Assembly (NCBI GenBank): GCA_040752595.1
Contig: JBFMGX010000004.1
Location: 155,440-219,439 of the forward strand
Direction: 5' to 3'
Source: Candidatus Zixiibacteriota bacterium
Lineage (GTDB): Bacteria > Zixibacteria > MSB-5A5 > WJJR01
DNA: 64,000 nt
Position numbers and translations under genes: made by a program. Shown here in pieces: positions 15,258-60,826 of the stretch; position 1 is the first letter of the stretch, and each line of letters starts with the position of its first letter. Under the pieces are notes generated by a model. The model was given only the letters and a program-made list of their open reading frames with translations, searched no databases and was not told where the DNA came from.

Positions 15258-15352
15258 GTCATCCTGAGCGAAGCGAAGGATCTGCTGTTTCCTCCTGTAG
15301 GGCAGCAGCAGATTCTTCTCCCCGCCAAAGAACGGCGGGGTTCAGAATGACA
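15258..15352. repeat. MITE-like element family 6 (terminal inverted repeats tcatcctgagcg ... ttcagaatgaca)
   Basis: tcatcctgagcgaagcgaaGGATCTGCTGtttcctcctgtagggcagCAGCAGATTCttctcCCCGCCaaagaacGGCGGGgttcagaatgaca. Internal perfect stem GGATCTGCTG/CAGCAGATTC and stem CCGCC/GGCGG. The ends tcatcctga / tcagaatga are inverted repeats. Copies at 57546-57668 and 60684-60826; a partial copy at 63608-63645. Confidence 0.6.
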
Positions 15353-15403
15353 TGGATGGCACTTTGTCCGCAACCGGCTAAACCCTCTGCTCAGCGCGAC
15401 GCA

Positions 15404-15508
15404 TACCCTCTCCCTTCGGCATGCCCCGAGCAAAGTCGAGGGGAAGAGGTCGATCCGTCCGCAGGACGGATCGGCTTGCCCTGAGAGAAGTCGAAGGGGT
15501 GGGGGATT
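15404..15508. repeat. Family-5 composite hairpin element (variant), adjacent to the family-6 element
   Basis: ccctctcccttcggcatgccccgagcaaagtcgaggggaagaggtcg + atccgtccgcaggacggatcgg + cttgccctgagagaagtcgaaggggtggggg. Confidence 0.55.
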
Positions 15509-15711
15509 CTTTCGGTCCACCATGCTGTCAGACGTATCGATGAACAACGATCCTGTCCTCCTGCAGGAACTCACGCCCACCCGGCAATCTACGGTGCCCC
15601 CGACGTTTGTCAATCCGGCGAACGACCTGCCACGCAGCCGCGCCGGAAATGATATTGCGTCCGGCATCGGCACGTATGACATTGACAGGGAGGGTCCGCA
15701 CAGGAGTCGCC

Positions 15712-16935
15712 ATGGTCTTCTCGCACTCGCGTCTGAACACATACGAGAGTTGCCCGCGCAAGTACGCCTTCCGGTACATCGAAAAGCCGCCGATCGAAGA
15801 ACACCCCTCCGTCGAGGCGTTCATGGGCTCGATGGTGCACGAGGCGCTCGAGAAGCTCTACCGCTCCGTGCAGATGGAGCGCATCCCCAAGTGGGAGGAA
15901 ATCCGCGATTTCTACGAGGACACCTGGCAGCGTAACTGGGAGGACGACATCCTGATCGTCCGGTCGGAGTTCACCGGCGACGACTACCGCAACGTCGGCC
16001 GCCGCTGCCTGCAGGACTATTTCGTCGGCCACTACCCCTTCTCCGAGGGCCGGATTCTGGGATTGGAGGAACGGATTCTCTTCGACCTCGACCCGGACGG
16101 GCGCTACAAGATTCAGGGATACATCGATCGCCTGGTCGAGGGGGCTGACGGGGCCATCGAGATTCACGACTACAAGACCAACCGACGTCTTCCCTCGCAG
16201 GCGGAGATCGACGCCGAGCGCCAGTTGGCGCTGTACCAAATCGGCATCCAATCCCGTTGGGATGGCACCCACACGGTTCGACTCTACTGGCACTTCCTGC
16301 GTGCCAACCGGACCCTGAAGTCAGTGCGCTCACCCGAATCACTCACGGAACTTCGTGCCGACACCATCCGCTTGATCGACACGATCGAGGCCGCCCGTGC
16401 TGGCAACGACTTCCCGCCGCATGAGTCCCAGCTCTGCGCCTGGTGCGAATTCCAGTCACTATGCCCTGCCAAACGCCATCTCTTCGCCACCGCCACGCTC
16501 ACACCCCAGCAATTCGCCGCCGACTCCGGCGTGCGGTTGGTTGACCGCTTCGTCGCCGCCGCGCGACACAAGGCACAGAGCGAGGCGGAACTGCAGGCGG
16601 TTCGTCAGGAAGTCATCGAGTTTGCTGGCGTCAATAATCTGACGCGTATCCAGGGCCATCATGCCAGCGTCGGCATCCATCGCCGCTGGGAGCAGACGAT
16701 CCCCAATCAGGACGATCCCAATCGCAAGCTTCTCGAGTCGCTGGTCCGCGCCAGCGGCTATTGGGAGAAGGTCTCGGACCTTTCCCGCTCCAAACTTCCC
16801 AAGGCGCTGCAGGGGGACTTGTTCGACCCTGCGACCCGTCAGCGGATCGCATCCCTGCTCCCCCGCAATGAGATCGTAGTCGTCACCAAACGCGAGGACG
16901 CGAATGATGAGAGAAGCGACGGCCCGGACGTCTGA
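15712..16935 (+). CDS. PD-(D/E)xK superfamily nuclease, RecB-family/Cas4-like, with a C-terminal Cys cluster
   Basis: RBS aggag lies 5 nt before the ATG at 15712. N-terminal SHSRLNTYESCPRKYAFRYI motif. Nuclease core IDRLVEGADGAIEIHDYKT (D...E.K). C-terminal CAWCEFQSLC. The spacing of one N-terminal Cys plus three C-terminal Cys matches the Cas4/AddB-type Fe-S arrangement. Confidence 0.7.
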   Translation: MVFSHSRLNTYESCPRKYAFRYIEKPPIEEHPSVEAFMGSMVHEALEKLYRSVQMERIPKWEEIRDFYEDTWQRNWEDDILIVRSEFTGDDYRNVGRRCLQDYFVGHYPFSEGRILGLEERILFDLDPDGRYKIQGYIDRLVEGADGAIEIHDYKTNRRLPSQAEIDAERQLALYQIGIQSRWDGTHTVRLYWHFLRANRTLKSVRSPESLTELRADTIRLIDTIEAARAGNDFPPHESQLCAWCEFQSLCPAKRHLFATATLTPQQFAADSGVRLVDRFVAAARHKAQSEAELQAVRQEVIEFAGVNNLTRIQGHHASVGIHRRWEQTIPNQDDPNRKLLESLVRASGYWEKVSDLSRSKLPKALQGDLFDPATRQRIASLLPRNEIVVVTKREDANDERSDGPDV

Positions 16936-16953
16936 AGTCAACGACAACTGACT

Positions 16954-16981
16954 GAGCCGGGCTCATCCCTGAGCCCGGCTC
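16954..16981. terminator. Putative bidirectional terminator hairpin between convergent genes
   Basis: GAGCCGGGCTC-atccct-GAGCCCGGCTC, an 11-bp stem, lies between the nuclease stop (16935, + strand) and the Cys-rich peptide stop (17004, - strand). Confidence 0.4.
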
Positions 16982-17003
16982 GCGCATACCCCCGGCAGAG
17001 TGT

Positions 17004-17294
17004 TCATTTGTCCGGTACGCAGTCATCCCCTGGCCCCGGGATGCAGATCGGCTTGCATCGCCAAATGAGGGAATCGGGGAGACAGTACCAGTGTCCCATG
17101 CACAGGTATGATTCCGTGACGGCACACCAGTAGTTGCAGTTGCAGCCGCCGCTGTGGCATTGCGCCGCCGGCTCGGGATCCTCGCAGGGAGTCTCGCTGC
17201 TGGCGGCCGGGCCCCCAGACAAGAACATCGTCGCTGTGAGTGCCGCCGCGAACACAAAGGCCGCCCACAGAATCATCGGCTTCTTCACCATCAT
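17004..17294 (-). CDS. Small secreted cysteine-rich protein (10 Cys in about 70 mature residues)
   Basis: RBS ggaaaggagacc precedes ATGATG at 17294. Signal peptide MMVKKPMILWAAFVFAAALTATMF. Mature part: PCEDPEPAAQCHSGGCNCNYWCAVTESYLCMGHWYCLPDSLIWRCKPICIPGPGDDCVPDK. Confidence 0.55.
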   Translation of the reverse strand: MMVKKPMILWAAFVFAAALTATMFLSGGPAASSETPCEDPEPAAQCHSGGCNCNYWCAVTESYLCMGHWYCLPDSLIWRCKPICIPGPGDDCVPDK

Positions 17295-17335
17295 CGCTGG
17301 TCTCCTTTCCATAGGAGTTGTATCACCACGACTCT

Positions 17336-17989
17336 CTATACCGCACCCTGGGACGCTTCTGGTGCGATGATCTCACGTAGTCTGGCAATGCTTGCTTCGA
17401 AAACGAAGCCAAAGGAAATCAGCTTCGTCTGGGAGTCAAGGTAAAACCAAGGCATCGTTCCCTGAACGTTGTGCCGCGCTCGCAAGCTGGACCCGCGATC
17501 ACAGTACAGCGGAATTCGCACGTTGCTTCGAGCCAAAGACACAGCAAGGTCCACAGCCCCGGGCCAAGCATCCGCGACTAGCACGACTGGCAATGCCGCC
17601 GTTCCAGCAGAATCTACAGCAGCCTGCAATGCAACCGCCATCCTGATGCACTGATCGCAGTCGGTTGTGACCAAGGTAATGACACCCCCATGGGGCAGTA
17701 CTTGCGACACTGAGAGGAGACTCTCACTGGCGATGGGTGAGAGCGGAAGTTGCGGGAACGCCTCCGCCACTTCGATTCCTACCACCTCGCGTCTGAACTG
17801 CTGCGCCAAGCTGTCGTGCCATTCGCGCCACCTCAGCAGTGTGGCCGAGTCCGGGGACTCCGGGGCCGAAGACGTCGTCCTCGCCCGCACCTTGTTGCGA
17901 GGTTGCCCGAGCCAGATACCCAAAACGGCAGCAACCACAGTGACCGCCACGTAGGCGGCAACGGTCTTTGGGGGCAAGGTAACCCCCAC
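17336..17989 (-). CDS. Membrane-anchored thioredoxin-fold protein (CxxC = CDQC), probably a thiol-disulfide oxidoreductase
   Basis: N-terminal TM helix AAYVAVTVVAAVLGIWL. VITLVTTDCDQCIRM CxxC motif, with a cis-Pro-like TMPWFYL further on. Immediately upstream of the Cys-rich peptide on the same strand and apparently co-transcribed with it. Confidence 0.5.
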   Translation of the reverse strand: MGVTLPPKTVAAYVAVTVVAAVLGIWLGQPRNKVRARTTSSAPESPDSATLLRWREWHDSLAQQFRREVVGIEVAEAFPQLPLSPIASESLLSVSQVLPHGGVITLVTTDCDQCIRMAVALQAAVDSAGTAALPVVLVADAWPGAVDLAVSLARSNVRIPLYCDRGSSLRARHNVQGTMPWFYLDSQTKLISFGFVFEASIARLREIIAPEASQGAV

Positions 17990-18063
17990 AGTAGCACCTC
18001 CAGTACTCGGGGCGCCACAAACACCAATAATCCGTCAGGAGCATCGCCCCCCCTTACAATTTG

Positions 18064-18105
18064 TCAAGAACTTTCTTGACTTTTCTTTGCACAACCGGAA
18101 ATAAT
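18064..18105 (+). promoter_or_regulatory. Putative sigma70-like promoter overlapping a palindromic operator (TCAAGAActTTCTTGA)
   Basis: An AT-rich island in a GC-rich genome. Candidate -35 TTGACT (18076-81), an 18-nt spacer, then AATAAT (18100-05). The palindrome at 18064-18079 overlaps the -35. About 90 nt upstream of the 18197 start. Confidence 0.3.
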
Positions 18106-18196
18106 TCTCCGGACGGGGTGTAATGTGTTGTCGGGTACTGACTAAGGCGGAGTGACACTGCCAGGAACACGTGCTCCAATCCTGAGGTAGCTTCCG

Positions 18197-20728
18197 GTGA
18201 GATCGTCCCGTACAATTGCAGTCAATGTCGCGTCTGCAGTTCTTCTGTGTATCCTTGGCGCGCCCGCGACGGGCGAGCACCTAATCCTGCCGGTCTTTGA
18301 CCTTCGTCTGCACTACGTCGGGGACATTTGGTACGGGGTGCCCAATGACGGGCCGTGCTGGGCTTGCTATCGCGATCAACCTCCGGCACTCTCGCACAAG
18401 GATCGCGACGCTTTGCGGATCGACTGGGATCCATGCTTCGAGTTTCCCGGCCGATCAACTGTCCAATACTTGGAGACCGGCGGCTTGGCAATTGGATGTA
18501 TCCGACATATGGACACGCTGGTCAGTTCCTCAGCACTGGGTTTCTGGACATACGAGTTCATGGCATACGACACGATTCGTGAATCTTCCCGCGTTCCCGG
18601 ATCGCGTTACTATAGCAGTGAGGCCATAAGTGACCAGGAGTACTTCACAACCTTCTATGACACTTCAGTATCATCTCATTCCGGAATCGACTTCATCGAG
18701 AACCGTCGGCACCGGCCGATAGGGCTCGCATTCCACCAAACCAGTCATTCGTGGTCCACCGGATTTGCCAAGCGGTTCATCATCTTTGAGTATTGGATCG
18801 AGAATATCTCCGGCGACACTCTTCATCAATGCGCCGTGGGATTATCTCTCTCCCCATTGGTTGGCTACACGGGCGGTACCTTCGGCGACGGTACCTGTGG
18901 CCTCTTGCGTGAGGTTCCAGGTATAGTTTCGGCGACGGTGGACACGCTCGACGTCGCGTGGGCCGCGGACATAGATGGGAAACCGACTAGGTCGGGATCT
19001 TATTTCGAGCGGTCCCCCACTGCCGTCTTGGGCGTGCGTATCTTACGTGCACCCATGGGTGGCAACTTCAGTTTCAACTGGTGGGGTTCTACGTCGGGGA
19101 CCGATTACGCTTGGGGTCCACGGCGACAGCGAGACCAACTCCGATTCACCCCTTCTCAGGGAATGCCGCTCGGCGATCGTCATCGGTACCGGATGATGAC
19201 AAACGGCGAGATCGATTACGATCAGGTCTACTGTGCCTTGGATCACTACGCGGAAGGATGGTCCCCGAATCTCCCTCAAGATGCCATGCGCGAAATCGCC
19301 CAAGGCACATGGATCTCATTCGTGCTCTCTTACGGCCCCCTACCTGACATCCCGCCTGGCGATTCAATTCCCTTCACCTTCGCCCTGATCGCCGGCGCCA
19401 ACTTCCATACTAATCCCCGCAACTTCGCCGACAACTTCGATCCCATGAATCCCAAGCGCTACCTCGACAATCTCGACTTCACCGATCTGATCCAGAATGC
19501 CTGCTGGGCCGACTGGATATTTGATTTCCCCGGTGTCGACACCGACGGCGATGGATATCGCGGGAAATATCATGTGACCAACTGCAATCCCAGCGGGACG
19601 GTCTGCGACACGGTCTGGTACAAAGGCGATGGCATCCCCGATTGGGCCGGGCCGCAGGCGCCGTCCTCGCCGCCGTTCGAGTTCAGCACCGCGCCGCACA
19701 AGATCACACTCCGCTGGAATGGCGCGATTCCAGAAACGAGCCGGGACCAGCTCTCGCGCAAGCGCGACTGGGAGGGATACCGGGTCTACTCGTCGCGCTT
19801 CGACGTCGATGACAAATACGAACTGATCGCCAGTTGGGATAAACCGGACGACTTCACCCGATGGGCCTACCAGTCCAAGACCAACGACTGGAAACAGGTC
19901 TCCTATCCGTTGACTGTGGACCAATGGCGCGCCGTCATGGACGATCCGGAATTCGATCCTCTGGACCATTCACATCCGTCCTTCGAATCCGCCTACCGCG
20001 ACACGATCATCGACACCGTGGTCGACGTGCACGGGACCATCATCGAGATCGTCCCACGGCTGCGCTACTCGTATTGGATACCGGAGAACGCCAACCGGGG
20101 GAACCGCTACTGGGGCGCGGACCGTTGGGAGGACAATCTGATCCAGAAGGTCGGCGAGCAGGACACGATCATCGACAGCGATACGCTCAGTTATGGCATC
20201 TACGAGATGACGCTCGACAATCTGAACGCCGCCATCCCTTTGTACTTCGCCATCACCGCTTATGACTATGGCGACTATGTTCGCAATGTGACCACGTTGG
20301 AAGGGTCCCCCCACACCAACAGCCAATACTGCCACCTGCTGTACTCCTCCGACGTCGTCATCGATTCGGGTCTGCAGGTCTCGGTCTTTCCCAATCCGTA
20401 CAAGATCCAGTTCAAGGATGCCTTCGGTGACTGGACCAGTTACTATCGTGAGGGGTATGAGGGACCGGGGAAGCCGGTGATGGACGAGCGCGACCGGCGT
20501 ATCTGGTTCATCAATCTCCCCGACACGGCGGAGATCAACATCTACACGCTCGATGGCGACTTGGTCCGCAAGATTCTGCATCCCGATCCGTTCCTGACGA
20601 CGTACCCATCGATCGTCGGCTGGGACCTGATCTCGCGCAACACGCAGGCGGTGGTGTCCGGTATCTACATCTGGCGGGTCGATTCGCGGTTGGGTAGACA
20701 GATCGGCAAGCTAGTGATCATCAAGTAG
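18197..20728 (+). CDS. Large secreted protein with an FN3-like region and a C-terminal T9SS sorting domain (Por_Secre_tail-type)
   Basis: Signal peptide MRSSRTIAVNVASAVLLCILGAPATG. C-terminus VSVFPNPYKIQF...AEINIYTLDGDLVRKIL...SGIYIWRVDS...GKLVIIK matches the T9SS CTD consensus. N-terminal region paralogous to 12263..15097. Confidence 0.75.
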   Translation: MRSSRTIAVNVASAVLLCILGAPATGEHLILPVFDLRLHYVGDIWYGVPNDGPCWACYRDQPPALSHKDRDALRIDWDPCFEFPGRSTVQYLETGGLAIGCIRHMDTLVSSSALGFWTYEFMAYDTIRESSRVPGSRYYSSEAISDQEYFTTFYDTSVSSHSGIDFIENRRHRPIGLAFHQTSHSWSTGFAKRFIIFEYWIENISGDTLHQCAVGLSLSPLVGYTGGTFGDGTCGLLREVPGIVSATVDTLDVAWAADIDGKPTRSGSYFERSPTAVLGVRILRAPMGGNFSFNWWGSTSGTDYAWGPRRQRDQLRFTPSQGMPLGDRHRYRMMTNGEIDYDQVYCALDHYAEGWSPNLPQDAMREIAQGTWISFVLSYGPLPDIPPGDSIPFTFALIAGANFHTNPRNFADNFDPMNPKRYLDNLDFTDLIQNACWADWIFDFPGVDTDGDGYRGKYHVTNCNPSGTVCDTVWYKGDGIPDWAGPQAPSSPPFEFSTAPHKITLRWNGAIPETSRDQLSRKRDWEGYRVYSSRFDVDDKYELIASWDKPDDFTRWAYQSKTNDWKQVSYPLTVDQWRAVMDDPEFDPLDHSHPSFESAYRDTIIDTVVDVHGTIIEIVPRLRYSYWIPENANRGNRYWGADRWEDNLIQKVGEQDTIIDSDTLSYGIYEMTLDNLNAAIPLYFAITAYDYGDYVRNVTTLEGSPHTNSQYCHLLYSSDVVIDSGLQVSVFPNPYKIQFKDAFGDWTSYYREGYEGPGKPVMDERDRRIWFINLPDTAEINIYTLDGDLVRKILHPDPFLTTYPSIVGWDLISRNTQAVVSGIYIWRVDSRLGRQIGKLVIIK

Positions 20729-21012
20729 GGGCACGGCGTGCCGTGCCCGCATCCGCGATCAAAGATCGCGGGCACACGCATTCGCACGTAGGGCGGGCTC
20801 TGCCCGCCCGCAAGGGGCTGAAGCCCCTTGTCCTCGGTTGTTGCGTCGAATGACGGAAGCCGCGATCAAAGATCGCGGGCACGCGTTCATGTGTCTCGTA
20901 GGGTGGGCTCCGCCCACCTTCCAAAGGGTTGAAGCCCCTTGCCTCAACGCGAACGACGCGCTTCCACTGGGACTTCACATCTCGAGGACAAGGGGTTTCA
21001 AGCCCTTGTTCC
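20725..21012. repeat. Dense cluster of at least 7 REP-like hairpins from families 1, 3 and 4 plus GCGATCaaaGATCGC x2
   Basis: GTAGGGGCACGGCGTGCCGTGCCC (20725-48, overlapping the stop codon); GCGATCAAAGATCGCGGGCAC at 20764 and 20870; GTAGGGCGGGCTCTGCCCGCCC + CAAGGGGCTGAAGCCCCTTG (20788-20830); GTAGGGTGGGCTCCGCCCACC + AAGGGTTGAAGCCCCTT (20898-20940); GACAAGGGGTTTCAAGCCCTTGTTCC (20987-21012). Confidence 0.6.
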
Positions 21013-21054
21013 CCCCGGCGAAGCACGGACATTCCGAGGCGGCCACGCACCATA

Positions 21055-21086
21055 CAACAAAATGAAGAACGGCCCCATCGGGGGCC
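21055..21086 (-). terminator. Intrinsic terminator of ctpA (hairpin plus U-tract on the minus strand)
   Basis: GGCCCC-atcg-GGGGCC hairpin (21071-86). On the minus strand it is followed by uucuucauuuuguug (complement of 21055-70). 30 nt downstream of the ctpA stop. Confidence 0.5.
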
Positions 21087-21116
21087 GTCTTCACATGTGA
21101 AAACTCGTGCGGTCGG

Positions 21117-22892
21117 TCAGCTCTTCCGATCGCCCGCCAGCAGATGCCGGTACTCGTCCTTGGACGTGAGGATCTCGCGCGCCCTCTGCACGTACTGGTC
21201 TTCCCGCAACACATATCCCTCATAGTACCCGCGTTCCCCGTACAGCTTGTTGAGAACCGCACGCCGAATCTCGCCCTTCAGGAGGTCCTGGCTTTCGTCA
21301 AATGCCAGCTCCTTCTCGCGGGCCACCAGTTCACGCATCTGCGCGAGCGTGGGTTCATAGATCGCCTGGCGGGCCGGATCATCCTTCAGATCGGCCGTGA
21401 TCTTGTCGAGCTCGACTTCGGTCTCCGTCTTGAAGTCGAACTTATCGTCCCGCAGGTACTGCCGGAAGGCCTCGAGAACGGCATCGTCCGCCACGAAGTC
21501 CATCGACGCATTCGGGTGCGTCGCGGTGTAGTGGACGGCGAAGTTGAAGAACTTTCCCTGACGCCACAGGTCGATCTCCAGCGGTTTGGACAACTGCCGC
21601 TCGACCAGCACGTCGGGGACAACGCCGCCGCCGCCGAACACCTTGCGCCCCTTGTTCGTGTAGTACACCTCCGCATCGGAACGCGGCTTGTCGACCAACG
21701 AGTCGTCGTCGGCTTCCTCTTTGGTGCCGGGGTGTTTGGTGGCGCGGCTCGGCTTCTGAATGGAACGCCCCGACGGAATATAGTAGCGCGCCGTCGTCAA
21801 CTTGAGAGCCACGTCGTCGGTTTCCGGGAGCCGGAACACCTGTTGCACGAGTCCCTTGCCGAACGTCGTATTCCCGACAATCAACCCACGGTCCCAGTCC
21901 TGAATCGCGCCGGAAACGATCTCGCTGGCGGAGGCCGTCCCCTCGTCCACAAGCACGACCAACGGCAGGTCGGGGAGGACCGGGTCTTCGGAGGAAAAGT
22001 ACTTGTGCTGCGATTCCGGATCGCGCCCCTGCGTGTAGACGATCAGCTTGTCCTTCGCCAGGAAGAGATTCGAAGTCTTGACCGCCTGATCGAGCAACCC
22101 GCCGCCGTTGTAGCGCAGATCGAAGATCAGACTCCTGGCCCCCTGGTTCTTCAGGTCGGTGAGCGCCTCCCGCAGCTCCTGGTCCGTCGTCTCCGAGAAC
22201 TTGTTGAGCCGCAAATAGCCGATCTTGTTCTGCTCGTCGGCCATGCCGTAGTACGGCACCGACTTCAACTCGATCACGGCGCGGTCGACCGTGTAGTCCA
22301 AGGGCTCATGCAGACCGGCGCGGACGATCGTCAGTACGACCTTCGTGCCCGCCGGTCCCCGCATCAATTTGGCCGCCTGCTCGGTCGTCATGCCGAAGGT
22401 CGGCTTGCCGTCGATGGCGACAATCCGGTCGCCCGCCTGCAGTCCGACACGCTGCGCCGGCGTCCCCTCGATCGGGGCGATGATTGTGATCGTGTCCTCG
22501 CGCCGGTCGATCTGCATCCCCAGACCCTCGTACTTCCCGTGCGTGGACTCCATCAACTGATCGTAATTCCGCTGTTCCATCAGTACGGAAAATGGGTCCA
22601 GGACGTCCAGCATGCCGCGAATGCCGGCATAGACCATGTCCTTGGTGTTGACCGTGTCCATGTAGTTCGACTGGATGCGGAAGGAGATGTCGTTCAAGAG
22701 ACGTGTGTACTTGTACAGCGTCTCCCGCATCAGATTGCGGCTGCGGTCGGTGTCCACCGTGCCGCCATCGGTCTGGGCCCAGACCGCCTCGCGGTGGGGG
22801 GTCGCCTCACCCGATCCCACAATCCAGATCGTCGCCGCCGCCGCCACGGCCAGAAACAGCGTGTACAACCGGAAACGTCGCTCGTTATTCAT
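21117..22892 (-). CDS. ctpA: Carboxyl-terminal processing (tail-specific) protease, peptidase S41
   Basis: N-terminal TM/signal, then a PDZ domain (GLQAGDRIVAIDGKPTFGMTTEQAAKLMRGPAGTKVVLTIVR) and the S41 catalytic region (LVVLVDEGTASASEIVSGAIQDWDRGLIVGNTTFGKGLVQ). Confidence 0.9.
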   Translation of the reverse strand: MNNERRFRLYTLFLAVAAAATIWIVGSGEATPHREAVWAQTDGGTVDTDRSRNLMRETLYKYTRLLNDISFRIQSNYMDTVNTKDMVYAGIRGMLDVLDPFSVLMEQRNYDQLMESTHGKYEGLGMQIDRREDTITIIAPIEGTPAQRVGLQAGDRIVAIDGKPTFGMTTEQAAKLMRGPAGTKVVLTIVRAGLHEPLDYTVDRAVIELKSVPYYGMADEQNKIGYLRLNKFSETTDQELREALTDLKNQGARSLIFDLRYNGGGLLDQAVKTSNLFLAKDKLIVYTQGRDPESQHKYFSSEDPVLPDLPLVVLVDEGTASASEIVSGAIQDWDRGLIVGNTTFGKGLVQQVFRLPETDDVALKLTTARYYIPSGRSIQKPSRATKHPGTKEEADDDSLVDKPRSDAEVYYTNKGRKVFGGGGVVPDVLVERQLSKPLEIDLWRQGKFFNFAVHYTATHPNASMDFVADDAVLEAFRQYLRDDKFDFKTETEVELDKITADLKDDPARQAIYEPTLAQMRELVAREKELAFDESQDLLKGEIRRAVLNKLYGERGYYEGYVLREDQYVQRAREILTSKDEYRHLLAGDRKS

Positions 22893-23228: not shown

Positions 23229-23301
23229 TGTGCCACGGGTCTTCAGACCCGTGCCGCTTCCCTCCACCCTTGGGAGTTCACGGGTCTAAAGACCCGTGGC
23301 A
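23229..23301. repeat. Two adjacent family-2 palindromes (GTGCCACGGGTCTTCAGACCCGTGCC and GTTCACGGGTCTAAAGACCCGTGGCAC)
   Basis: Same hairpin core CACGGGTCT..AGACCCGTG as at 5254 and 9360. Lies in the spacer between ctpA and the TPR membrane gene. Confidence 0.6.
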
Positions 23302-40053: not shown

Positions 40054-40667
40054 GTAGGGGCACGGCGTGCCGTGCCCGCTCATGGTGCGCGGTGAACACC
40101 AATCACACATTGCCTCATCGCCGCTCCGTGCGCATAGCCGGGTACGACTACACACGCGCAGGGGCGTATTTCGTCACGATTTGTACACGCGATCGCGCCT
40201 GTATCTTGGGCGATGTCGTGGATGGGACCGTGCATTTGAATCCCCTTGGGTGCGCCGCTCGTCACGAATGGATGGTGATACCGACACACCATCCGCAGGT
40301 TGTGCTGGATGTGTTCGTGGTCATGCCCAACCACGTGCACGGGATCATCATTCTCTCCCATCCGTCGGGCACGGCACGCCGTGCCCCTACAGAGGAACGA
40401 TTCGCACGTCCCGTTGCGGGCTCACTGCCGACCATCGTACGCGCCTTCAAATCGGCATCGACCCGATCGATCAACCTCCTGCGCCGCACACCCGGAGCCG
40501 CCGTCTGGCAACGCAATTACTACGAACACGTAATACGCAACGAAGACGAACTGCTCCGTGCGCGAGAATACATCGTGAACAACCCTCTGCGATGGTCCCT
40601 GGATCGCGATAACCCAGACGTCATCGCCCCACGTGCATTATCTGTAGGGCTGCGGCCTGCCGTGCCC
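40054..40667 (+). mobile_element. REP-RAYT unit: REP-associated tyrosine transposase gene bracketed by its cognate REP (family 1) copies
   Basis: REP GTAGGGGCACGGCGTGCCGTGCCC at 40054-77 (forward), 40367-90 (reverse complement, inside the ORF) and 40644-67 (forward, degenerate, overlapping the 3-prime end of the ORF). Unlinked copies at 20725 and 42000. Confidence 0.7.
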
Positions 40668-40673
40668 TCATGA
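40092..40673 (+). CDS. REP-associated tyrosine transposase (RAYT; IS200/IS605-like Y1 HUH transposase)
   Basis: YDYTRAGAYFVTICTRDR N-terminal motif; HUH motif VVMPNHVHGII; catalytic-Tyr region AVWQRNYYEHVIRNEDELLRAREYIVNNPLRW. GTG start at 40092. Confidence 0.8.
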   Translation: MNTNHTLPHRRSVRIAGYDYTRAGAYFVTICTRDRACILGDVVDGTVHLNPLGCAARHEWMVIPTHHPQVVLDVFVVMPNHVHGIIILSHPSGTARRAPTEERFARPVAGSLPTIVRAFKSASTRSINLLRRTPGAAVWQRNYYEHVIRNEDELLRAREYIVNNPLRWSLDRDNPDVIAPRALSVGLRPAVPS

Positions 40674-41823: not shown

Positions 41824-42683
41824 GTGTGCTTGTCCCGGTACTGGCTCTCGTAGTATGCTCCTCTGCGACATGTCGGGCCGATCAACAGCCGGCCTTGCCC
41901 GTTCCAGACACGACAGGGCTTGTAGGGTGCGTGCTCAGCACGCACCGTCAGGGGGCTGGAAACCCTCTGTCCGCAATCGATAACGATCCGCTGGCAATCG
42001 TAGGGGCACGCCCTGCCGTGCCCGTCTTCTCCCCGGTAAGCGCGCTCGCTCGACCACGCACGGAACGCGACAGTGAGTTCGGCACCGAAGACCGGGACAA
42101 GGTCAACGTGACACGCGCCGTGGCGTATTCGCTCATACTCCCCGGCGCCGGGCAGTGGTATGCCGGTGCCAAGGGCCGTGCCGGCGTCTTCCTCGTCGGC
42201 GAAGCTGCGACGTGGACTCTGTTTGGGTACTTCCGTACTGTCAGCAGCATCAAAGAAGACAGCTATCAGTCCTACGCTCGTGTTCATGCCGGAATCGACC
42301 CAGCCGGTAAGAGCGTTGATTTCTATCGCCTGATCACCTTCTATGAATCGCGGGATGAATACAATGAATACGGTCGCCTCTTGGCACCGGGGCGACCATA
42401 CTACCCGGATAGCCCGGTCTGGGACTGGCAATGGGATTCCCAGGCGGCGATGCGACGCTATCGCACCCTCCGCAATCAGAAAAGCGAGGCCGACAATCGC
42501 GCTCGCTTCACGCTCGGTGCCGCTGTCGTCGACCGACTGATCGCCGCCATCGACGCCTGGCGGACCGCCCGGTCGGCCAATCGCCGTGCGCGCATGGAGA
42601 CGTCACAGTGGAAGGTGCACCTGAAAGGCGTTCCCAGTCTGGATCACCCGGCATTCGGACTGGTTCTTTCCCGGCAATTCTGA
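41824..42683 (+). CDS. Second GWGQWY-motif paralog (secreted hypothetical)
   Basis: Start tentatively the GTG at 41824 (VLVPVLALVVCSSATC signal-like segment). The ORF-track start at 41694 runs through the repeat. Contains an in-frame REP-1 copy at 42000-42023 coding AIVGARPAVP. Confidence 0.5.
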
Positions 42684-54187: not shown

Positions 54188-54210
54188 TATGATGCAACAA
54201 TCGCTGAAGG

Positions 54211-54308: not shown

Positions 54309-54360
54309 TGGGAGCGGACGAGCCAGTGAGCGACCGAATGCCGAACAAGCAGGGAAGCAC

Positions 54361-55353
54361 ATGATCCTCCGTTTCGCCAATCCTTGGTTTCTGGGGGCCG
54401 CGCCGCTGATCGTCGCGCTGGTGTGGTGGGAGATTCGCTCCCGGCGGCAGCGCCGTGCCACGGCGTTCTCATCGCTGACTCTGATGGGCGATGTTCGTCC
54501 GTCGTGGCGCGTGCGCTTCCGTTGGCTTCCCTCGGCGGCCCGCATTCTGGCACTGACCGCGCTGTTGGTGGCCATGGCGCGCCCCCAGACCGGGACGGCC
54601 TCGCGCGAGATTACCTCCGAAGGAATCGACATCGTGCTGGCGCTGGATGTCTCCGGTTCCATGAAGGCCGAGGACTTCCAGCCGCACAACCGCCTCTATG
54701 TCGCCAAGCAGGTCATTCGCGATTTCGTCAAGGGGCGTACCAATGATCGCGTCGGGCTCGTGGTCTTCGCCGCCGAGTCGTTCACGCAATGTCCGTTGAC
54801 GCTCGACTACGATGTCCTGCTGAGTCTCCTCGACAAGGTCGATTTCGGCATGATCACCGATGGAACCGCCATCGGCACCGGCCTGGCCAATGCGGTCAAC
54901 CGACTGCGCGATTCCCACGCCAAGAGCCGCATCATCATCCTGTTGACCGACGGTGTCAACAACCGTGGGCAAATCGAGCCGTTGACGGCCGCCGAGATCG
55001 CCAAGACACTCGGGATCAAGGTGTACACGATCGGCGCGGGAAAGCCGGGCACGGCGATGTATCCGGTCGAGGACCCGGTCTTCGGGAAGCGATACATCAG
55101 TCTTCCCAATGAAATCGATGAGGTCGTGCTCCAGAAGATCGCCGACATGACCGGCGGCCGCTACTACCGCGCGCGTTCCGAACAGATGTTGGAACGCATC
55201 TACCGGGAGATCAGTACGTTGGAGAAGACCGAGGTCAAGGTGAAGGAGTATGTTCAGTATCGGGATCTGTTCGCCCACTTCAGCGCTCTGGCCCTGGCGG
55301 CGACCGTCCTCGGCGTGGTCCTGAATGGAACCTGGTTTCGCACGTTGCCGTAG
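54361..55353 (+). CDS. batA: BatA (von Willebrand factor A domain aerotolerance protein)
   Basis: Two N-terminal TM helices, then a VWA domain with the MIDAS motif DIVLALDVSGSM...LLTDGVNNRG. Position in the operon. Confidence 0.85.
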   Translation: MILRFANPWFLGAAPLIVALVWWEIRSRRQRRATAFSSLTLMGDVRPSWRVRFRWLPSAARILALTALLVAMARPQTGTASREITSEGIDIVLALDVSGSMKAEDFQPHNRLYVAKQVIRDFVKGRTNDRVGLVVFAAESFTQCPLTLDYDVLLSLLDKVDFGMITDGTAIGTGLANAVNRLRDSHAKSRIIILLTDGVNNRGQIEPLTAAEIAKTLGIKVYTIGAGKPGTAMYPVEDPVFGKRYISLPNEIDEVVLQKIADMTGGRYYRARSEQMLERIYREISTLEKTEVKVKEYVQYRDLFAHFSALALAATVLGVVLNGTWFRTLP

Positions 55354-55383
55354 AATTTGTTTCGGGATGAGCGCATCATTCAC

Positions 55384-55482
55384 CACCCTCACCCCAGCCC
55401 TCTCCCTGAAAGGGAGAGGGGGTGAGATAACCTCTCCCTCCGGGAGAGGTCGATCCGCCGGAGGCGGATCGGGTGAGGGAGT
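55384..55482. repeat. Family-5 nested-hairpin element (near-identical to 54211-54308)
   Basis: cCCTCACCccagCCCTCTCCCtgaaaGGGAGAGGGggtgagataaCCTCTCCCtccGGGAGAGGtcg + atccgccggaggcggatcgg + GTGAGGGag. Confidence 0.6.
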
Positions 55483-55529
55483 TCTTCCTCTGTCTGTTCC
55501 AACCCAAGCAGACTGAGACGGATTGCACG

Positions 55530-56561
55530 ATGCGTTTCAGTGCCACCACTTGGTTATGGCTTCTCTGGCTGGTTCCACTCGTGGCCGTGTTTCTGGTCTG
55601 GGTCAGTCGGCGTCGCCGGGCGATGGCCGTGCGCTTTGCGGCATCGTCTGCCTGGCAGCGGCTGACCGGCGGAGAGATGTCGCGCCGGCGCTTCTGGCGG
55701 GGAATGCTCCTTGCCGGTGCGCTCGTGCTTTTGATCTTGGGCACAGCGGGACCGCAATGGGGCGCGCGGGCCGTCATGCTCCAGCGGCGCGGGCTCGACA
55801 TCGTGGTGGCACTCGATGTCTCCCGCTCGATGCTCGCCGCTGATGTCAAGCCCAACCGCTTGGAACGCGCCAAGCGCGAGATCGCCGCGGTCTTCGACCG
55901 TCTGGCGGGGGACAGGATCGGCCTCGTGGTCTTTTCCGGCAGTGCCTTTGTGCAGTGCCCCCTGACTCTGGATGCCTCCGCGGCGCGGTTGTTGCTCGAT
56001 GCCGTGGACATCCGTTCGGCCGGTCGTCCCGGCACCGCGCTCGATGCCGCGATCACGACCGCCGCCGGCATGTTCTCTCAGGACGAAAAGCAGTTCAAGA
56101 TCCTCATCGTCGTGACGGATGGTGAGGGCACGGAGGGTGATCCTCTGACGGCGGCTCAAGAGGCGGCGAAGCAGGGAATCCGCATCTACACCGTCGGCAT
56201 CGGCACGCCCGCCGGCGAGCCGATTCCGCTTTCGGATGAGCAGGGCAACCTGACCGGGTTCAAGAAGGACCAGAATGGACAGGTCGTTCTCTCCAGGCTC
56301 GATGAAGTCACCCTGCAGAAGATCGCTCTGGCCACGGACGGCCGCTACTTCCGCGCCGGTCCGGCGCAGATGGAGTTGGACGAGTTGTTCAAGGAGCTAT
56401 CGACGCTCGACAAAAAGGAGATGGAGGGTCGTCTGTTCACCGAGTTCGAACAGAGATTTCAGTACTTCCTCGTCCCGGCCTTTGCGTTGTTGATGGCCGA
56501 GGCCGCGTTGCCGCTGGCACGACGGGGGAAGCGGGACATCCAGCCACCTCCCGGTGCTTGA
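55530..56561 (+). CDS. batB: BatB (VWA domain aerotolerance protein)
   Basis: N-terminal TM helices and a VWA MIDAS motif (DIVVALDVSRSM...IVVTDGEGTEG). Paralog of BatA immediately downstream, as in Bacteroides bat operons. Confidence 0.85.
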   Translation: MRFSATTWLWLLWLVPLVAVFLVWVSRRRRAMAVRFAASSAWQRLTGGEMSRRRFWRGMLLAGALVLLILGTAGPQWGARAVMLQRRGLDIVVALDVSRSMLAADVKPNRLERAKREIAAVFDRLAGDRIGLVVFSGSAFVQCPLTLDASAARLLLDAVDIRSAGRPGTALDAAITTAAGMFSQDEKQFKILIVVTDGEGTEGDPLTAAQEAAKQGIRIYTVGIGTPAGEPIPLSDEQGNLTGFKKDQNGQVVLSRLDEVTLQKIALATDGRYFRAGPAQMELDELFKELSTLDKKEMEGRLFTEFEQRFQYFLVPAFALLMAEAALPLARRGKRDIQPPPGA

Positions 56562-56600
56562 AGAGGACCAAATGACTGGGCTGAGACCATCGCATCGTCT

Positions 56601-56632
56601 GGTGAACAAGGGGCTTCAGCCCCTTGTTCACC
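56601..56632. repeat. REP-like palindrome GGTGAACAAGGGGCTTCAGCCCCTTGTTCACC (family 4) in the batB-batC spacer
   Basis: Perfect 14-bp stem around the GCTTCAGC loop. Confidence 0.55.
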
Positions 56633-56691
56633 GTGCTCATGCGCACACACCGTGGCCGTACTTCCGGCTGTGCCTATTCTCAAGGTCTATC

Positions 56692-57477
56692 ATGGCCAAC
56701 TCACTGATCGCTGTCTTCACGCTCGTTGGTATCACAGCCCGCGCCGATGACTTCGCCAAGCTCAACAACAATGGCAATCGCCTTGCCGGCAAGGGGCACT
56801 ACGATGAGGCGCTCGAAGCGTACCGATCCGCGTTGATCGAACGCCCCGATGTCCCCGGCGTCGTCTACAACATCGGCAACGCCTATCATCTGAAGGGTGC
56901 CTTCGACTCCGCCGCGGCCGCCTATCACAACGCATTGGCTCGTGACGACCAGACGCTGTCGGCCGAGACCGAGTACAACCTCGGCAACACACTCTACCGC
57001 ATGCGCGAGTTCCAGCCCGCGGTCGATGCCTACAAGGCGGCGCTGCGCCGCAATCCCGACGATCTGGACGCCAAGCACAACCTGGAGATGGCTCTGCGCC
57101 ACCTGGACAAACAGGACTCCACACCCCAGCAGAAGCAGCAGAACCAACAGGACCAACAGAATAAACCCGATTCCAATCAGCAGCAGAACCAGAATCAGAA
57201 TCAGCAACAGAAACAGGATTCCACGCAGAATCAGCAGAATCAGGATTCCCAGAGTCAGCAGCAGTCGGATTCATCCCAGAACGATCAGCAGTCCGACCAA
57301 CAGAAGAAAGAGCAGCAAGAACAGGAACAGCGCCGCCGTCAGGCGCAGCAGCGGATGACCGGGATGACCCGACAGGACGCCGAGCGTATCCTCGATGCGC
57401 TCAAGAACGATGAGTTGAAGCTTCAGCGCCTGCGGGCCCAACGCGTCACCGAAGAGGACGTCGTCAAGGACTGGTAG
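56692..57477 (+). CDS. batC: BatC (TPR-repeat aerotolerance protein) with a long Q/N-rich low-complexity linker
   Basis: Signal/TM MANSLIAVFTLVGITARA. TPR units (GKGHYDEALEAYRSAL..., YNIGNAYHLKGAFDSAAAAYHNAL..., YNLGNTLYRMREFQPAVDAYKAAL...). Then about 80 aa of QQKQQNQQDQQN... and a conserved C-terminal block. Confidence 0.75.
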   Translation: MANSLIAVFTLVGITARADDFAKLNNNGNRLAGKGHYDEALEAYRSALIERPDVPGVVYNIGNAYHLKGAFDSAAAAYHNALARDDQTLSAETEYNLGNTLYRMREFQPAVDAYKAALRRNPDDLDAKHNLEMALRHLDKQDSTPQQKQQNQQDQQNKPDSNQQQNQNQNQQQKQDSTQNQQNQDSQSQQQSDSSQNDQQSDQQKKEQQEQEQRRRQAQQRMTGMTRQDAERILDALKNDELKLQRLRAQRVTEEDVVKDW

Positions 57478-57545
57478 TGCGAGCTTGGTATGGCGGCTTG
57501 GCAGGCTCGTGAAGAGTACACGAAATGCGTAGCGTCTCCACCCAT

Positions 57546-57668
57546 GTCATCCTGAGTGAATCCCGCGCTCCGCGAGCGCGGGATGAAGCGAAGGATCTGC
57601 TGTTTCTCCCCATAGAGGTAACAGCAGATTCTTCGCCCCGCCAAAGAACGGCGGGGCTCAGAATGACA
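57546..57668. repeat. MITE-like family-6 element
   Basis: gtcatcctgagtgaaTCCCGCGCTCcgcGAGCGCGGGAtgaagcgaaGGATCTGCTGtttctccccatagaggtaaCAGCAGATTCttcgCCCCGCCaaagaacGGCGGGGctcagaatgacatgg. Confidence 0.6.
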
Positions 57669-57744
57669 TGGATACCGTTCTTTCCTAACTTGATAGTGTG
57701 CGTATTTCTGGCAAAATGAGCGCGCGCGGCAACACTCTGATACC

Positions 57745-57842
57745 AACCCTCTCCTTGAAAGGGCGAGGCGGCAGTTTCTTCCCCTCTCCCCTATGGGGAG
57801 AGGGTAGGCCTGCCCTGAGTGAAGTCGAAGGGGTGAGGGGTC
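57745..57842. repeat. Family-5-related nested-hairpin element
   Basis: caaCCCTCTCCttgaaaGGgcGAGGcggcagtttcttCCCCTCTCCCctatGGGGAGAGGGtaggcctgccctgagtgaagtcgaaggggtgagggg. Confidence 0.55.
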
Positions 57843-57916
57843 GGGTGTCTTCGATTGAACGTCACGGCGATCTTCCGCCGGTTCCGATTCTCGCAAGGGT
57901 CGGCAGAACCATCACC

Positions 57917-59713
57917 TTGGCGTGTGTTCTCCTGGCGTTCTCGCTTGCCGCCGCCTTTGCCGATACCACGTTTCGACTCAAGGTCGAACCGAAGAAGATC
58001 ATGCTCTCCGAGAACGCCACTCTGCAGTTGACTCTGGAAAGCGATTCCCGCTCACTGCCCCAGCCGCAGTTGCCGCCGCTTCCGGATTTCCAAGTCTTCT
58101 CCTCGGGACGCAACCAGAGCATGCAGGTGACCAACGGGCGTGTCCGATCGTCGATCATCTACTCGTATGTGCTGTCGCCCCGCCATGCCGGTCGCTTCAC
58201 CGTTGGTCCGGCGCGCGTCACCGTGGACGGTGTCGAGTACACGACGCAGGCGGAAACCGTTGTCGTCAATGAGGCCCCGCCGGCGTCGCCGGCACCTGTG
58301 CCCGCGCCTCCCGAGCACCCGCGAAATGAAGTCTCCGCCGCACGGGAAGCCAAGCGTAAGGTGTTCATCACCGCCGCCCTCGACAAGGACACAGCGTACG
58401 TCAACGAGCCGGTCACCTACATCTTCCGTTTCTACAAGGGCGAGCCGTTGCTCTCGTCGCCGGAATACTCCCGTCCCGCCTTCGCCAACTTCTGGTTCCA
58501 GGACCTCCCGCCGCAGCGGCAGTACACGACCGTTGTGGACGGCGTGCCGTACGAGGTCACAGAGATCCGCACGGCGCTGTTTCCCACCGACGCCGGGGAA
58601 AAGACCATCGGACCTTCGGAAGTCAAAGCGACCGTGATCGGCCGGCGTCGCGCCGCACCGCGCGACCCCTTCAGTCTGTTCGACAACGACTACTTCGGCG
58701 CTTTCAACCGCGGCGAGGAACTCAAATTGACGACGACGTCTCTGCGGTTGTTCGTACGTCCCCTGCCCGAGTCTGGAAAACCCCGTGAGGCCTCCGGTTT
58801 GGTCGGGAGATTCGCCGTCGAGGCGCGCGCCGATGTCCACTCGGTGAATGTCGGCGATCCGATTACGGTCAAGGTCACCGTGTCCGGTGAGGGGAACATC
58901 AAATCGATCCCGGAGCCGCACTTCGATTCACTTCCCAACTTCCGCATCTTCTCGGGCGGCACGAGCGAAGACATCTCGACAACCGACTATCGGGTCAGCG
59001 GACGCAAGACGTTCGAAGAAGTCTTCGTTCCGCAGCGTCCGGGGAGCTACCGTCTTCCTCCATTCGCCGTGACCTACTTTGACGTTGCCCGCCGGTCCTA
59101 TCAGACGGTCCGCAGCGATTCGATCCCGGTCACCGTCACCGGCGCGGCGGCCGATTTCACCATCCCATCACTTCGATTGGGCGCGGACCAACTCTCGGAC
59201 TTGGCCGCCGACGTTCGCTTTCTCAAGACCGAAGGCGGACATTTCCGGCAACGGAGCGATCCCGGTCTCTTTGGCGGCGCCTTCTGGATCGGTCACATTC
59301 TCCCACTGGCAGGCTTGACTCTGCTCTTGGGGTGGCGTCGTCGCCTGCTGCGCGAAGCCGCCGATCCGGTGGGTCGGCGTCGCCGTCTGGCCTATCGCCT
59401 CGCGATGGCACGCATGCAAGAGCGCGCAAGCAGCGACAAGCCATCAGCCGGGTTGAGCGCCGAGACCATTGCCGAGGCGCTCCTGCAATACTACTCCGAT
59501 CGTTACAACTGTGCCGCGCAGGGTCTCCGGCGCGATGAAATGCGCGGGCAGCTCCTCGACGATGGACTGCCTGAGGGCACCGTCAACGAGTACCTGGACA
59601 TACTCCAATCGTGCGATCAACAGCGGTATGCGCCGGGGCAGGACCATCGTGCCTCCGCTGACCTCCCGGCGCGCGCGGCACGCGTCCTCGTGTCGCTGGA
59701 GAAACCGCGATGA
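57917..59713 (+). CDS. batD: BatD (oxygen-tolerance protein; periplasmic domains, C-proximal TM)
   Basis: Tentative TTG start at 57917 (LACVLLAFSLAAAFA signal). Long beta-rich periplasmic region, then TM FWIGHILPLAGLTLLLGW + RRR and a cytoplasmic tail. The ORF-track start at 57698 runs through two repeat elements. Confidence 0.65.
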   Translation: MACVLLAFSLAAAFADTTFRLKVEPKKIMLSENATLQLTLESDSRSLPQPQLPPLPDFQVFSSGRNQSMQVTNGRVRSSIIYSYVLSPRHAGRFTVGPARVTVDGVEYTTQAETVVVNEAPPASPAPVPAPPEHPRNEVSAAREAKRKVFITAALDKDTAYVNEPVTYIFRFYKGEPLLSSPEYSRPAFANFWFQDLPPQRQYTTVVDGVPYEVTEIRTALFPTDAGEKTIGPSEVKATVIGRRRAAPRDPFSLFDNDYFGAFNRGEELKLTTTSLRLFVRPLPESGKPREASGLVGRFAVEARADVHSVNVGDPITVKVTVSGEGNIKSIPEPHFDSLPNFRIFSGGTSEDISTTDYRVSGRKTFEEVFVPQRPGSYRLPPFAVTYFDVARRSYQTVRSDSIPVTVTGAAADFTIPSLRLGADQLSDLAADVRFLKTEGGHFRQRSDPGLFGGAFWIGHILPLAGLTLLLGWRRRLLREAADPVGRRRRLAYRLAMARMQERASSDKPSAGLSAETIAEALLQYYSDRYNCAAQGLRRDEMRGQLLDDGLPEGTVNEYLDILQSCDQQRYAPGQDHRASADLPARAARVLVSLEKPR

Positions 59714-60510
59714 CGCCCGCTCTGGCATACATCTCTTGCCGCCGGGCCCGTACGTTGTCGGCCTTCGTGGTCGAACTCATTCTCTTCGGCGCGGTCTGTC
59801 CCGCATGGGCACAAAGCCCGGATCGGTTGTTCAGTGATGCCGTCGCCGCCTATCAGCGCGGCCGATTCGATTCGGCGGCCGCCGGTTTCCTGGCGTTGGT
59901 GCAGTCCGGAATCGATGACGCCCGTGTCTGGTATGACCTCGGGAATGCGCAATTCAAGTCGGGAAGCATCGGCTCGGCCTTGGTTGCGTACCGGCGCGGC
60001 CTCCGTCTCACGCCCCGTGATGCCGATCTGAGGGCCAACTACCGCTATGTCCGGCTCTTTGCCGCCGACAAGATCGAGCCGGTCGGCGTGCTCTTTCTGG
60101 AGCGATGGTGGCTCGCCGCCGTCGGTCGTCTTTCGATCTATGAGGCCCGCGCCCTGGCCGGAATCTCCTTCTGGGCCGCCGTTCTTCTGACCGCCTGGAG
60201 TCTATGGCCCAAGCGCAGACCGGGGAAGGCGATCCCGGTCGGCGCACTCGTTGTTTGTTGGTGCCTCTGGCTCCTGCTGACCGGTGTCGCCGCCACCGCC
60301 TATGTCCGCGATGTCTCAAGACACGACGGCGCCGTGATTGCGGTGAAGACCGATATTCGCGGCGGTCCCGGTAATGACTACGCTCTGCAATTCGTCGCCC
60401 ATGATGGCCTCGAAGGCACTGTCGAGCGCAGCGAATCCGGCTGGTATCTGGTTCGATTCCCCAATGGCGTCAAGGGCTGGGTCGCCGCCACCGCCTTCGA
60501 GATCGTGTAA
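59710..60510 (+). CDS. batE: BatE (TPR + transmembrane + SH3-like domain)
   Basis: 4-bp overlap with batD (ATGA). TPR segment (AVAAYQRGRFDSAAAGFLAL..WYDLGNAQFKSG..ALVAYRRGL). TM helices, then a C-terminal SH3b-like segment GWYLVRFPNGVKGWVAATAFEIV. Confidence 0.75.
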   Translation: MTPALAYISCRRARTLSAFVVELILFGAVCPAWAQSPDRLFSDAVAAYQRGRFDSAAAGFLALVQSGIDDARVWYDLGNAQFKSGSIGSALVAYRRGLRLTPRDADLRANYRYVRLFAADKIEPVGVLFLERWWLAAVGRLSIYEARALAGISFWAAVLLTAWSLWPKRRPGKAIPVGALVVCWCLWLLLTGVAATAYVRDVSRHDGAVIAVKTDIRGGPGNDYALQFVAHDGLEGTVERSESGWYLVRFPNGVKGWVAATAFEIV

Positions 60511-60683
60511 CGGCTTCTGTCAGCGGGAGGGCGGGGCAACGCCCACCGCCAACCCACCTGTAATGTACTCGAACTGCTCCGATCTCCCCGGCAAATAGAA
60601 CGATCCCGCGACCTGCAATCGCCGGAGGTCAATCACTGTATTCGCTCCCGCCCAGTCGCGAACCATCATGGGAGCACAGGGCT

Positions 60684-60826
60684 GTCATGCCGAGCGAATC
60701 CCGCCCGCCGCGGCGGGCGGGATGAAGCGAAGCATCTGCTTTCCTTCCCCGATGAAGAGACAGCAGATTCTCGCCCGCCTCTGGCGGGCAAGCCCCGCCA
60801 AAGAGAGGCGGAGTTCAGAATGACAA
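60684..60826. repeat. MITE-like family-6 element (longest copy)
   Basis: gtcatgccgagcgaaTCCCGCCCGCCgcgGCGGGCGGGAtgaagcgaagcatctgctttccttccccgatgaagagaCAGCAGATTCtcGCCCGCCtctGGCGGGCaaGCCCCGCCaaagagaGGCGGAGttcagaatgacaattc. Confidence 0.6.

Follow-up and report, generated by a model that had tools for sequence, protein, structure and literature searches.

What are the short repeats with inverted ends that recur at four sites in a 64,000-nucleotide stretch of a Zixibacteria genome (Candidatus Zixiibacteriota bacterium, assembly GCA_040752595.1, contig JBFMGX010000004.1, positions 155,440 to 219,439; hereafter the window), and with which protein, if any, do they work? An earlier note, made from the letters of this stretch, grouped them as a repeat family (family 6) resembling miniature inverted-repeat transposable elements (MITEs) with true terminal inverted repeats (TIRs). 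The analysis presented here leads to a different answer. The family-6 copies are very probably inverted, tags-outward pairs of a hairpin akin to the Neisseria NTS repeats and the Ssn-related motifs (SRM), and the DNA partner of an Ssn nuclease, as in the (C/T)GTC-tagged superfamily of repetitive extragenic palindromic (REP) elements. SRMs and (C/T)GTC-tagged REPs are, in fact, the same thing.

All four sites with the shared ends TGTCAT…ATGACA were recovered, three of them as full copies, and their parts are as follows.

15257-15352, plus strand: copy 1, inverted SRM-type hairpin pair TGTCAT…ATGACA, in a divergent intergenic region.
15258-15282, plus strand: copy 1, 5' arm, with GTC tag, stem ATCCT/AGGAT, loop GAGCGAAGCGA (tandem G·A pairs and GCGAAGC), then C.
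15311-15351, minus strand: copy 1, 3' arm, with GTC tag, stem ATTCT/AGAAT, hairpin CCCCGCC…GGCGGGG (15320-15340) in place of the loop, then C.
57545-57668, plus strand: copy 2, inverted hairpin pair, with batC (ends 57477) upstream and batD (starts about 57845) downstream.
57546-57597, plus strand: copy 2, 5' arm, with stem ATCCT/AGGAT, a hairpin (57561-57583) nested in the loop and TGAA…TGAA around that hairpin.
57627-57667, minus strand: copy 2, 3' arm, with stem ATTCT/AGAAT and the CCCCGCC…GGCGGGG hairpin (57636-57656).
60683-60825, plus strand: copy 3, inverted hairpin pair, with batE (ends 60510) on one side and an LPG_synthase_TM gene on the other.
60684-60736, plus strand: copy 3, 5' arm, with stem ATGCC/AGCAT (one C·A mismatch), nested hairpin 60699-60722 and CGAA…TGAA around it.
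60766-60824, minus strand: copy 3, 3' arm, with stem ATTCT/AGAAT and two hairpins in the loop (60773-60789 and 60793-60813).
63610-63640, plus strand: a lone complete SRM-type hairpin, stem ATCCC/GGGAT, with no partner arm, within the 5' end of a lipoprotein-like open reading frame (ORF; ATG at 63583).

The three full copies align end to end and differ mainly by inserted GC hairpins, and their shared 5' and 3' modules were also recovered by a repeat search of the window (repeat families D11, D14, D16 and D20). The 30-nt head GTCATCCTGAGCGAAGCGAAGGATCTGCTG has two matches at up to three mismatches in the window and none in 100 shuffles. The modular, size-variable character that had been attributed to the family is thus well founded: the additional hairpins do exist and differ from each other in a compensatory manner (TCCCGCGCTC/GAGCGCGGGA at 57561-57583, TCCCGCCCGCC/GGCGGGCGGGA at 60699-60722), and copy 3 contains another one at 60773-60789. 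Two details of the earlier description do not hold. The "perfect stem" GGATCTGCTG/CAGCAGATTC contains one G·T mismatch, located exactly where the arms differ (ATCCT/AGGAT in the 5' arm, ATTCT/AGAAT in the 3' arm), and the unit at 63611, described as a "partial copy", is a single hairpin that is complete and lacks only a partner arm.

Each arm is a hairpin by itself, built according to the grammar 5'-(T)GTC-[A T N N N]-loop-[N' N' N' A T]-C-3'. All seven arms of the window have TGTC directly 5' of the stem and close with …AT-C-TG, the C lying immediately 3' of the stem; their stems are ATCCT, ATTCT, ATGCC and ATCCC, and six of the seven are perfectly closed. In some arms the loop is GAGCGAAGCGA, in which tandem G·A pairs lead into a GCGAAGC mini-hairpin; in others, larger hairpins take its place or lengthen it, which accounts for the modularity described above. 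Outside the arms only the T preceding GTC and the A following GAC are conserved, the former being present in 65 of 72 elements.

In order to decide which bases pair with which, covariation was counted in 60 distinct arms, for which GTC, the two GA dinucleotides and the final C served as the only anchors. At stem pair 6:22, C-G (31 arms), T-A (18) and G-C (9) replace one another with only two non-pairs; pair 8:20 is T-A in 43 arms and C-G in 11, and pair 5:23 is T-A in 55 and C-G in three. The core of the loop covaries as well (GCGNAGC versus ACGNAGT), and in the stems G·T mismatches are as rare as A·C mismatches. The two arms of an element, by contrast, often do not match: their stems are unlike in 102 of 163 distinct pairs, and in 60 of those 102 both arms are still perfectly closed. 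The pairs of the window follow the same pattern, ATCCT being combined with ATTCT and ATGCC with ATTCT. Since unlike arms are often each internally closed, the pairing under selection is the one within the arm and not the one between the supposed TIRs. Whole elements fold far better than shuffled sequences on both strands (z of -6 to -12). Folded as DNA, the 3' arm of copy 1 (15311-15351) reaches -11.2 kcal/mol (z -3.9), and that of copy 2 (57627-57667) has a z of -4.8.

A scan with the head pattern, one genome per species, returned at least 120 loci. Among the 80 of 120 listed, the hosts include Acidobacteriota, Gemmatimonadota, Nitrospirota, Latescibacterota, Desulfuromonadales, Betaproteobacteria and one metagenome-assembled genome (MAG) labelled Clostridiales. 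Arms of the same type are present in at least six bacterial phyla. The commonest form among them is a near-palindrome of 70-90 nt made of GTCATCCTGAGCGAAGCGAAGGATCTGCT, a variable spacer of 10-25 nt and the reverse complement of GTCATCCTGAGCGAAGCGAAGGATCTGCT. At several loci (L018 2612-2879, L060 1133-1279 and, upstream of the gene, L140, L146 and L148) truncated heads, TGTCATCCTGAGC plus 8-14 nt, are repeated two to four times in tandem before the full arm, with matching tandem tails on the opposite side, an arrangement that amounts to a symmetrical stepwise extension of the palindrome.

The partner protein came to light at four of the 120 loci listed, in which an ORF of about 95 amino acids (aa) with a GIY-YIG domain (PF01541) lies between two arms. 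A gene-carrying relative with matching ends, as the earlier note had proposed to seek, does therefore exist in other genomes, but what it carries is this small nuclease gene and no transposase. The association was then approached from the opposite side, with 80 metagenome loci taken by the GIY-YIG protein alone (591 relatives were confirmed). An arm of the window type, with up to five mismatches, lies within 300 nt of the gene at 29 of these 80 loci, and an arm of the general grammar lies within 200 nt at 61 (76%); at 38 loci (48%) a plus-strand arm upstream of the gene is combined with a minus-strand arm downstream. Arm density is 5.6 per kb near the gene versus 0.35 per kb more than 500 nt away, and 31 kb of shuffled flanks contained three arms. 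The variants found at these loci include TGTCATTCCTGCGAAGGCAGGAATCC, TGTCATTGCGAGCGAAGCGAAGCAATC and TGTCACCCTGAACTTGTTTCAGGGTC.

The family is large, with 4,916 cluster representatives (50% identity) at an E-value of 1e-10 or better, and its source annotation reads "GIY-YIG nuclease family protein" and nothing more; its relatives in the PDB are the UPF0213 proteins 1zg2 and 1ywl. Full-text searches of the literature for the repeat sequence, its read-through peptides or COG2827/UPF0213 gave nothing useful. The protein encoded at L089, whose element has arms of the window type, is 51% identical (E 3e-19) to a Neisseria gonorrhoeae gene that is itself bordered by canonical NTS repeats, CGTCATTCCCGCGCAGGCGGGAATCC. 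Two of the gene-bearing loci have peculiarities of their own. In L206 (1943-2470) an array of four complete hairpin pairs, each about 120 nt long, stands in direct tandem immediately upstream of the ssn homologue, which has no downstream arm and overlaps the next gene (acyl-CoA dehydrogenase), and several assemblies of this locus break inside the array. In L216 (594-875, N. gonorrhoeae) the sole ATG near the 5' end of the ssnA-like frame is out of frame with the conserved part, and this copy may be frameshifted or use another start.

In Neisseria, oriented NTS (CGTCATTCCCGCGMAVGCGGGAATCYRG) and their relatives, the SRMs, flank ssnA, whose product is a single-domain GIY-YIG protein of 94 aa (Chenal et al., Nat Commun 2025, PMC11893778). 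According to the same study, SsnA binds the hairpin only as single-stranded DNA (ssDNA), with no RNA binding, and cuts a few nucleotides upstream; the three bases 5' of the palindrome govern cutting, the C 3' of it governs binding, and the loop may be removed or extended. SsnA also lowers transformation by NTS-bearing DNA, and SRMs were found near 71% of the homologues and on both sides of 42%. Shared with the arms described here are a GTC tag directly 5' of the hairpin, a stem that begins with A-T and T-A, a C 3' of the stem, high copy number, intergenic location and placement on both sides of a gene for a single-domain GIY-YIG protein of about 95 aa, at rates (76% and 48%) close to the published ones (71% and 42%). 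To this may be added the 51% identity of the proteins and the natural loop extensions, which match a loop that is experimentally dispensable and extendable.

Likewise, Di Nocera et al. 2013 (PMC3733652) described REPs with the tag CGTC, "changed to TGTC… in many repeats", as a superfamily whose stems "almost invariably" begin with AT and whose members, among them Neisseria dRS3 and Rickettsia RPE-4 and RPE-6, are mostly organized as dimers. These elements "apparently lack a dedicated transposase" and do not flank tyrosine transposase genes. The window arms share with them the unpaired CGTC/TGTC tag, AT-first stems, a short unpaired tail, a predominance of inverted dimers with often unlike partners and the occasional intragenic unit. 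The published REPs differ in having continuous stems of 8-9 bp, loops of 4-5 nt and a CCA tail, whereas the stems here are interrupted, the loops modular and the tail CTG; no associated enzyme was known to those authors.

The differences from NTS and SRMs concern structure, hosts and specificity. The stem here is only 5 bp long, after which tandem G·A pairs lead on to the GCGAAGC mini-hairpin or to large nested GC hairpins, and the hosts (Zixibacteria, Acidobacteriota, Gemmatimonadota, Nitrospirota and others) are not named in the main text of PMC11893778. Furthermore, the two stems of a pair are usually unlike, and protein similarity is not reflected in the type of stem, in contrast to the sequence-specific stem recognition of the Neisseria enzyme: mean protein identity was 0.583 for the same stem and 0.576 for different stems, a difference that is not significant (138 of 2000 permutations as extreme), and more than one stem type surrounds a single gene in 22 of 66 loci. 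Judged by sequence, the window arms thus appear to represent an unlisted structural subfamily of the known Ssn/SRM system, and the Zixibacteria MAG a new host phylum for it.

Several observations weigh against this reading. No ssn or other GIY-YIG gene is present within the 64-kb window. With nearest-neighbour DNA parameters the simple 25-nt arm reaches only -2.7 to -3.5 kcal/mol, no better than shuffled sequences, and in a fully single-stranded element pairing between the two arms competes with the individual hairpins. The d(GCGAAGC) mini-hairpin is known to be stable, and the hairpin of the simple arm is supported by that stability together with the covariation. The published SRM search string, HGTCWYN(0-2)YYVSBRHN(0-5)WNVSBRGN(0-2)RNCYNB, matches the Neisseria NTS but no arm of the window, nor anything elsewhere in it; the window arms fit it at its two ends only (HGTCWY… and …RNCYNB), because their 5-bp stem is interrupted by the G·A pairs and the nested hairpins. 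This string is a search aid derived from 29 genomes and not a definition (PMC11893778). Finally, the Neisseria enzyme is inactive when the sequence of the stem is changed and pairing is kept (PMC11893778), and recognition is consequently not simply transferable to the window arms.

Nevertheless, a working model may be outlined by analogy with the Neisseria and Wolbachia pairs, the only ones for which cleavage of ssDNA by Ssn has been demonstrated (PMC11893778). The source Zixibacteria genome would encode a cognate Ssn outside the window, and this protein would bind the arms whenever the DNA becomes single-stranded, during replication, repair or DNA uptake. It would presumably nick just outside the tag, a few nucleotides 5' of GTC, so that each strand of an inverted pair would have one cuttable site, located at an outer edge of the element. 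The most speculative step is that the repeats might spread by an Ssn-dependent process resembling that of REPs and their RAYT transposases and leaving no target-site duplication (TSD), a possibility raised as a hypothesis only in PMC11893778.

The syntenic loci of relatives are informative in this respect. Copies 2 and 3 lie within a bat operon whose genes are co-oriented, batC being a TPR gene, and three syntenic relatives are available, with BatD proteins 74%, 60% and 59% identical to that of the window. The gap between batC and batD measures 367 nt in the window versus 2-3 nt in L201 and L204 and 160 nt in the third relative. No arm of this grammar was found in about 11 kb of each of the three; sites without the element in related genomes, for which the earlier note had suggested looking, do exist, and the window copies are therefore lineage-specific insertions. 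As regards TSDs, the other sign of insertion proposed there, none were found in 43 of 50 elements, the same as in a shuffled-partner control, with shifts of the boundaries included. A search for recent mobility by way of the GIY-YIG protein on 16 contigs found all of them in a single genomic context.

The idea that the hairpin pairs are themselves replicators like REPINs, copied by Ssn through a single-strand, TSD-free mechanism, with the loop between or within the hairpins serving as cargo or insertion site, is one we regard as rather improbable, though worth stating. It would explain three features together: nested hairpins with short duplications (YGAA in the window, GAGCGA in L079), the position of the ssn gene "in the loop", and the truncated heads and tails that stand in tandem in L018, L060 and L140. 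The duplications border the loop-nested hairpins directly, as TGAA…TGAA (57557-57587), CGAA…TGAA (60695-60726) and, in L079 (3430-3569 and 6476-6564), GAGCGA…GAGCGA, and could reflect either insertion with a mini-duplication or slippage.

We consider it unlikely that the elements are REP-like repeats maintained chiefly for a role in the host or at the RNA level (stabilisation or processing of mRNA, or termination, within operons), with the Ssn link being secondary. Copies 2 and 3 would be transcribed with the bat operon, the RNA structures are very stable, and most REPs of either superfamily are reported to lie downstream of ORFs (PMC3733652). On the other hand, close relatives have this operon but not the elements, RNA is not bound by Ssn (PMC11893778), and both orientations are present in every element, which together with the equal rarity of G·T and A·C mismatches means that there is no strand-specific RNA signature. 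Nor do the hairpins belong to an Rfam family: across the window no match reached the gathering score, and only chance-level ones appeared at E up to 10, so that the conserved non-coding RNA which the earlier note had named as its alternative finds no support either. A terminator function in particular was rejected, as no T-tract follows the hairpins on their 3' side and no copy was called terminator-like.

The original view, that of a classic MITE as the deletion derivative of an insertion sequence (IS) of the DDE type, mobilised in trans through its TIRs and leaving TSDs, is largely refuted, and we give it hardly any weight. The elements do resemble MITEs in being short, non-coding, dispersed and size-variable, with inverted ends and with insertion polymorphism between lineages, including their absence from the syntenic sites of relatives. 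What decides against it is the lack of TSDs, the arms that are unlike each other while each is internally paired, and the gene found between matching arms, which encodes a 95-aa GIY-YIG single-strand nuclease and not an IS-family transposase or one of any known type. The "TIRs" are two autonomous, self-folding units with covariation within the arm, not transposase-binding ends, and there is no parent IS. The MITE interpretation was, then, partly right in spirit and wrong in mechanism.

Equally improbable is the assignment to GTAG-type REP/REPIN elements mobilised by RAYT, an HUH Y1 transposase: the two are organized alike (tagged hairpins in inverted doublets, no TSD, a cognate gene between repeats, gene-less copies far more numerous than gene-bearing ones) and GTAG-tagged hairpins do occur in the window, but the tag is here (T)GTC, the gene between the arms is of the GIY-YIG and not the HUH type, and CGTC-type REPs do not flank tyrosine transposase genes (PMC3733652). 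Integron attC sites and CRISPR were dropped, the copies having no array or cassette arrangement and the wrong core sites.

Other features of the window concern the surroundings of the copies and further hairpin repeats. Copy 1 has a minus-strand gene for a dockerin/fn3 protein on one side and a plus-strand gene for a PD-(D/E)XK nuclease on the other. The lone unit at 63610-63640 is translated within a 19-aa N-terminal extension (MSEQPEARTCHPERSEGSA) of the lipoprotein-like ORF (63583-63999). The orthologues of this ORF begin at about the end of the repeat (VHVG… in L203, MNRR… in L201), where the corresponding codon of the window is GTT and not a start codon; insertion of the repeat may have displaced the start.

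Another family, of nested-hairpin elements (family 5), had been reported within about 60 bp of two of the family-6 copies. The neighbours are real, but lie 51 nt and 76 nt downstream, and the nested or sequential insertion read from them is not demonstrated: two co-occurrences among three or four copies are too few for linkage (p of about 0.1 by a rough estimate, with about ten copies and some 45 intergenic regions). The module said to be common to the two families was confirmed, as CTGAGCGAAG-CGAAGG versus CTGAG[C/T]GAAGTCGAAGG, with one indel (CTGAGYGAAG(T)CGAAGG). Unlike family 6, family 5 has neither the GTC tag nor the C 3' of the stem. In a related Zixibacteria genome a family-5-like element, CCCCTCACCC…CCCCAGCGGGGAGAGGGCCGGGGTGAGGG, occupies the orthologous batC-batD spacer (L203 4841-5000), which in the window is taken up by family 6 together with family 5 and in the two other relatives is lacking altogether.

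The GTAG-tagged hairpins (e.g. GTAGGGGCACGGCGTGCCGTGCCC and GTAGGGCGGGCTCTGCCCGCCC), located at 20725-20750, 20789-20811, 20899-20921, 40054-40079, 40644-40669 and 42000-42025 and forming a clustered mosaic at 20.7-21.1 kb, have the appearance of classic RAYT-type REPs, so that both REP superfamilies would coexist in this genome. Two more families of short hairpin repeats, ACAAGGGGCTTCAGCCCCTTGT and GTGCCACGGGTCTTCAGACCCGTGCC, are found at 5254-5284, 9303-9388, 15183-15210, 20810-20837, 20988-21015, 23230-23258 and 56606-56633, one of these copies being 50 nt upstream of copy 1 of family 6.

With the assignment proposed here, a repeat that is among the most widespread in soil and sediment bacteria, yet unannotated, acquires a name and a partner protein that can be tested; read-through ORFs across it give rise to spurious peptides such as VILSEAKDL, HPERSEGS and SFASLRMT. 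An entire structural subfamily escapes the published SRM pattern, so that the extent of the Ssn system has been underestimated. The natural loop-extended hairpins parallel the engineered ones used for programmable cutting of ssDNA, and the contrast between occupied and empty sites in a conserved operon bears on whether Ssn mobilises its repeats. If the hairpin pairs did prove to be replicators copied by Ssn, they would represent a new, GIY-YIG-based class of DNA transposition spreading across phyla.

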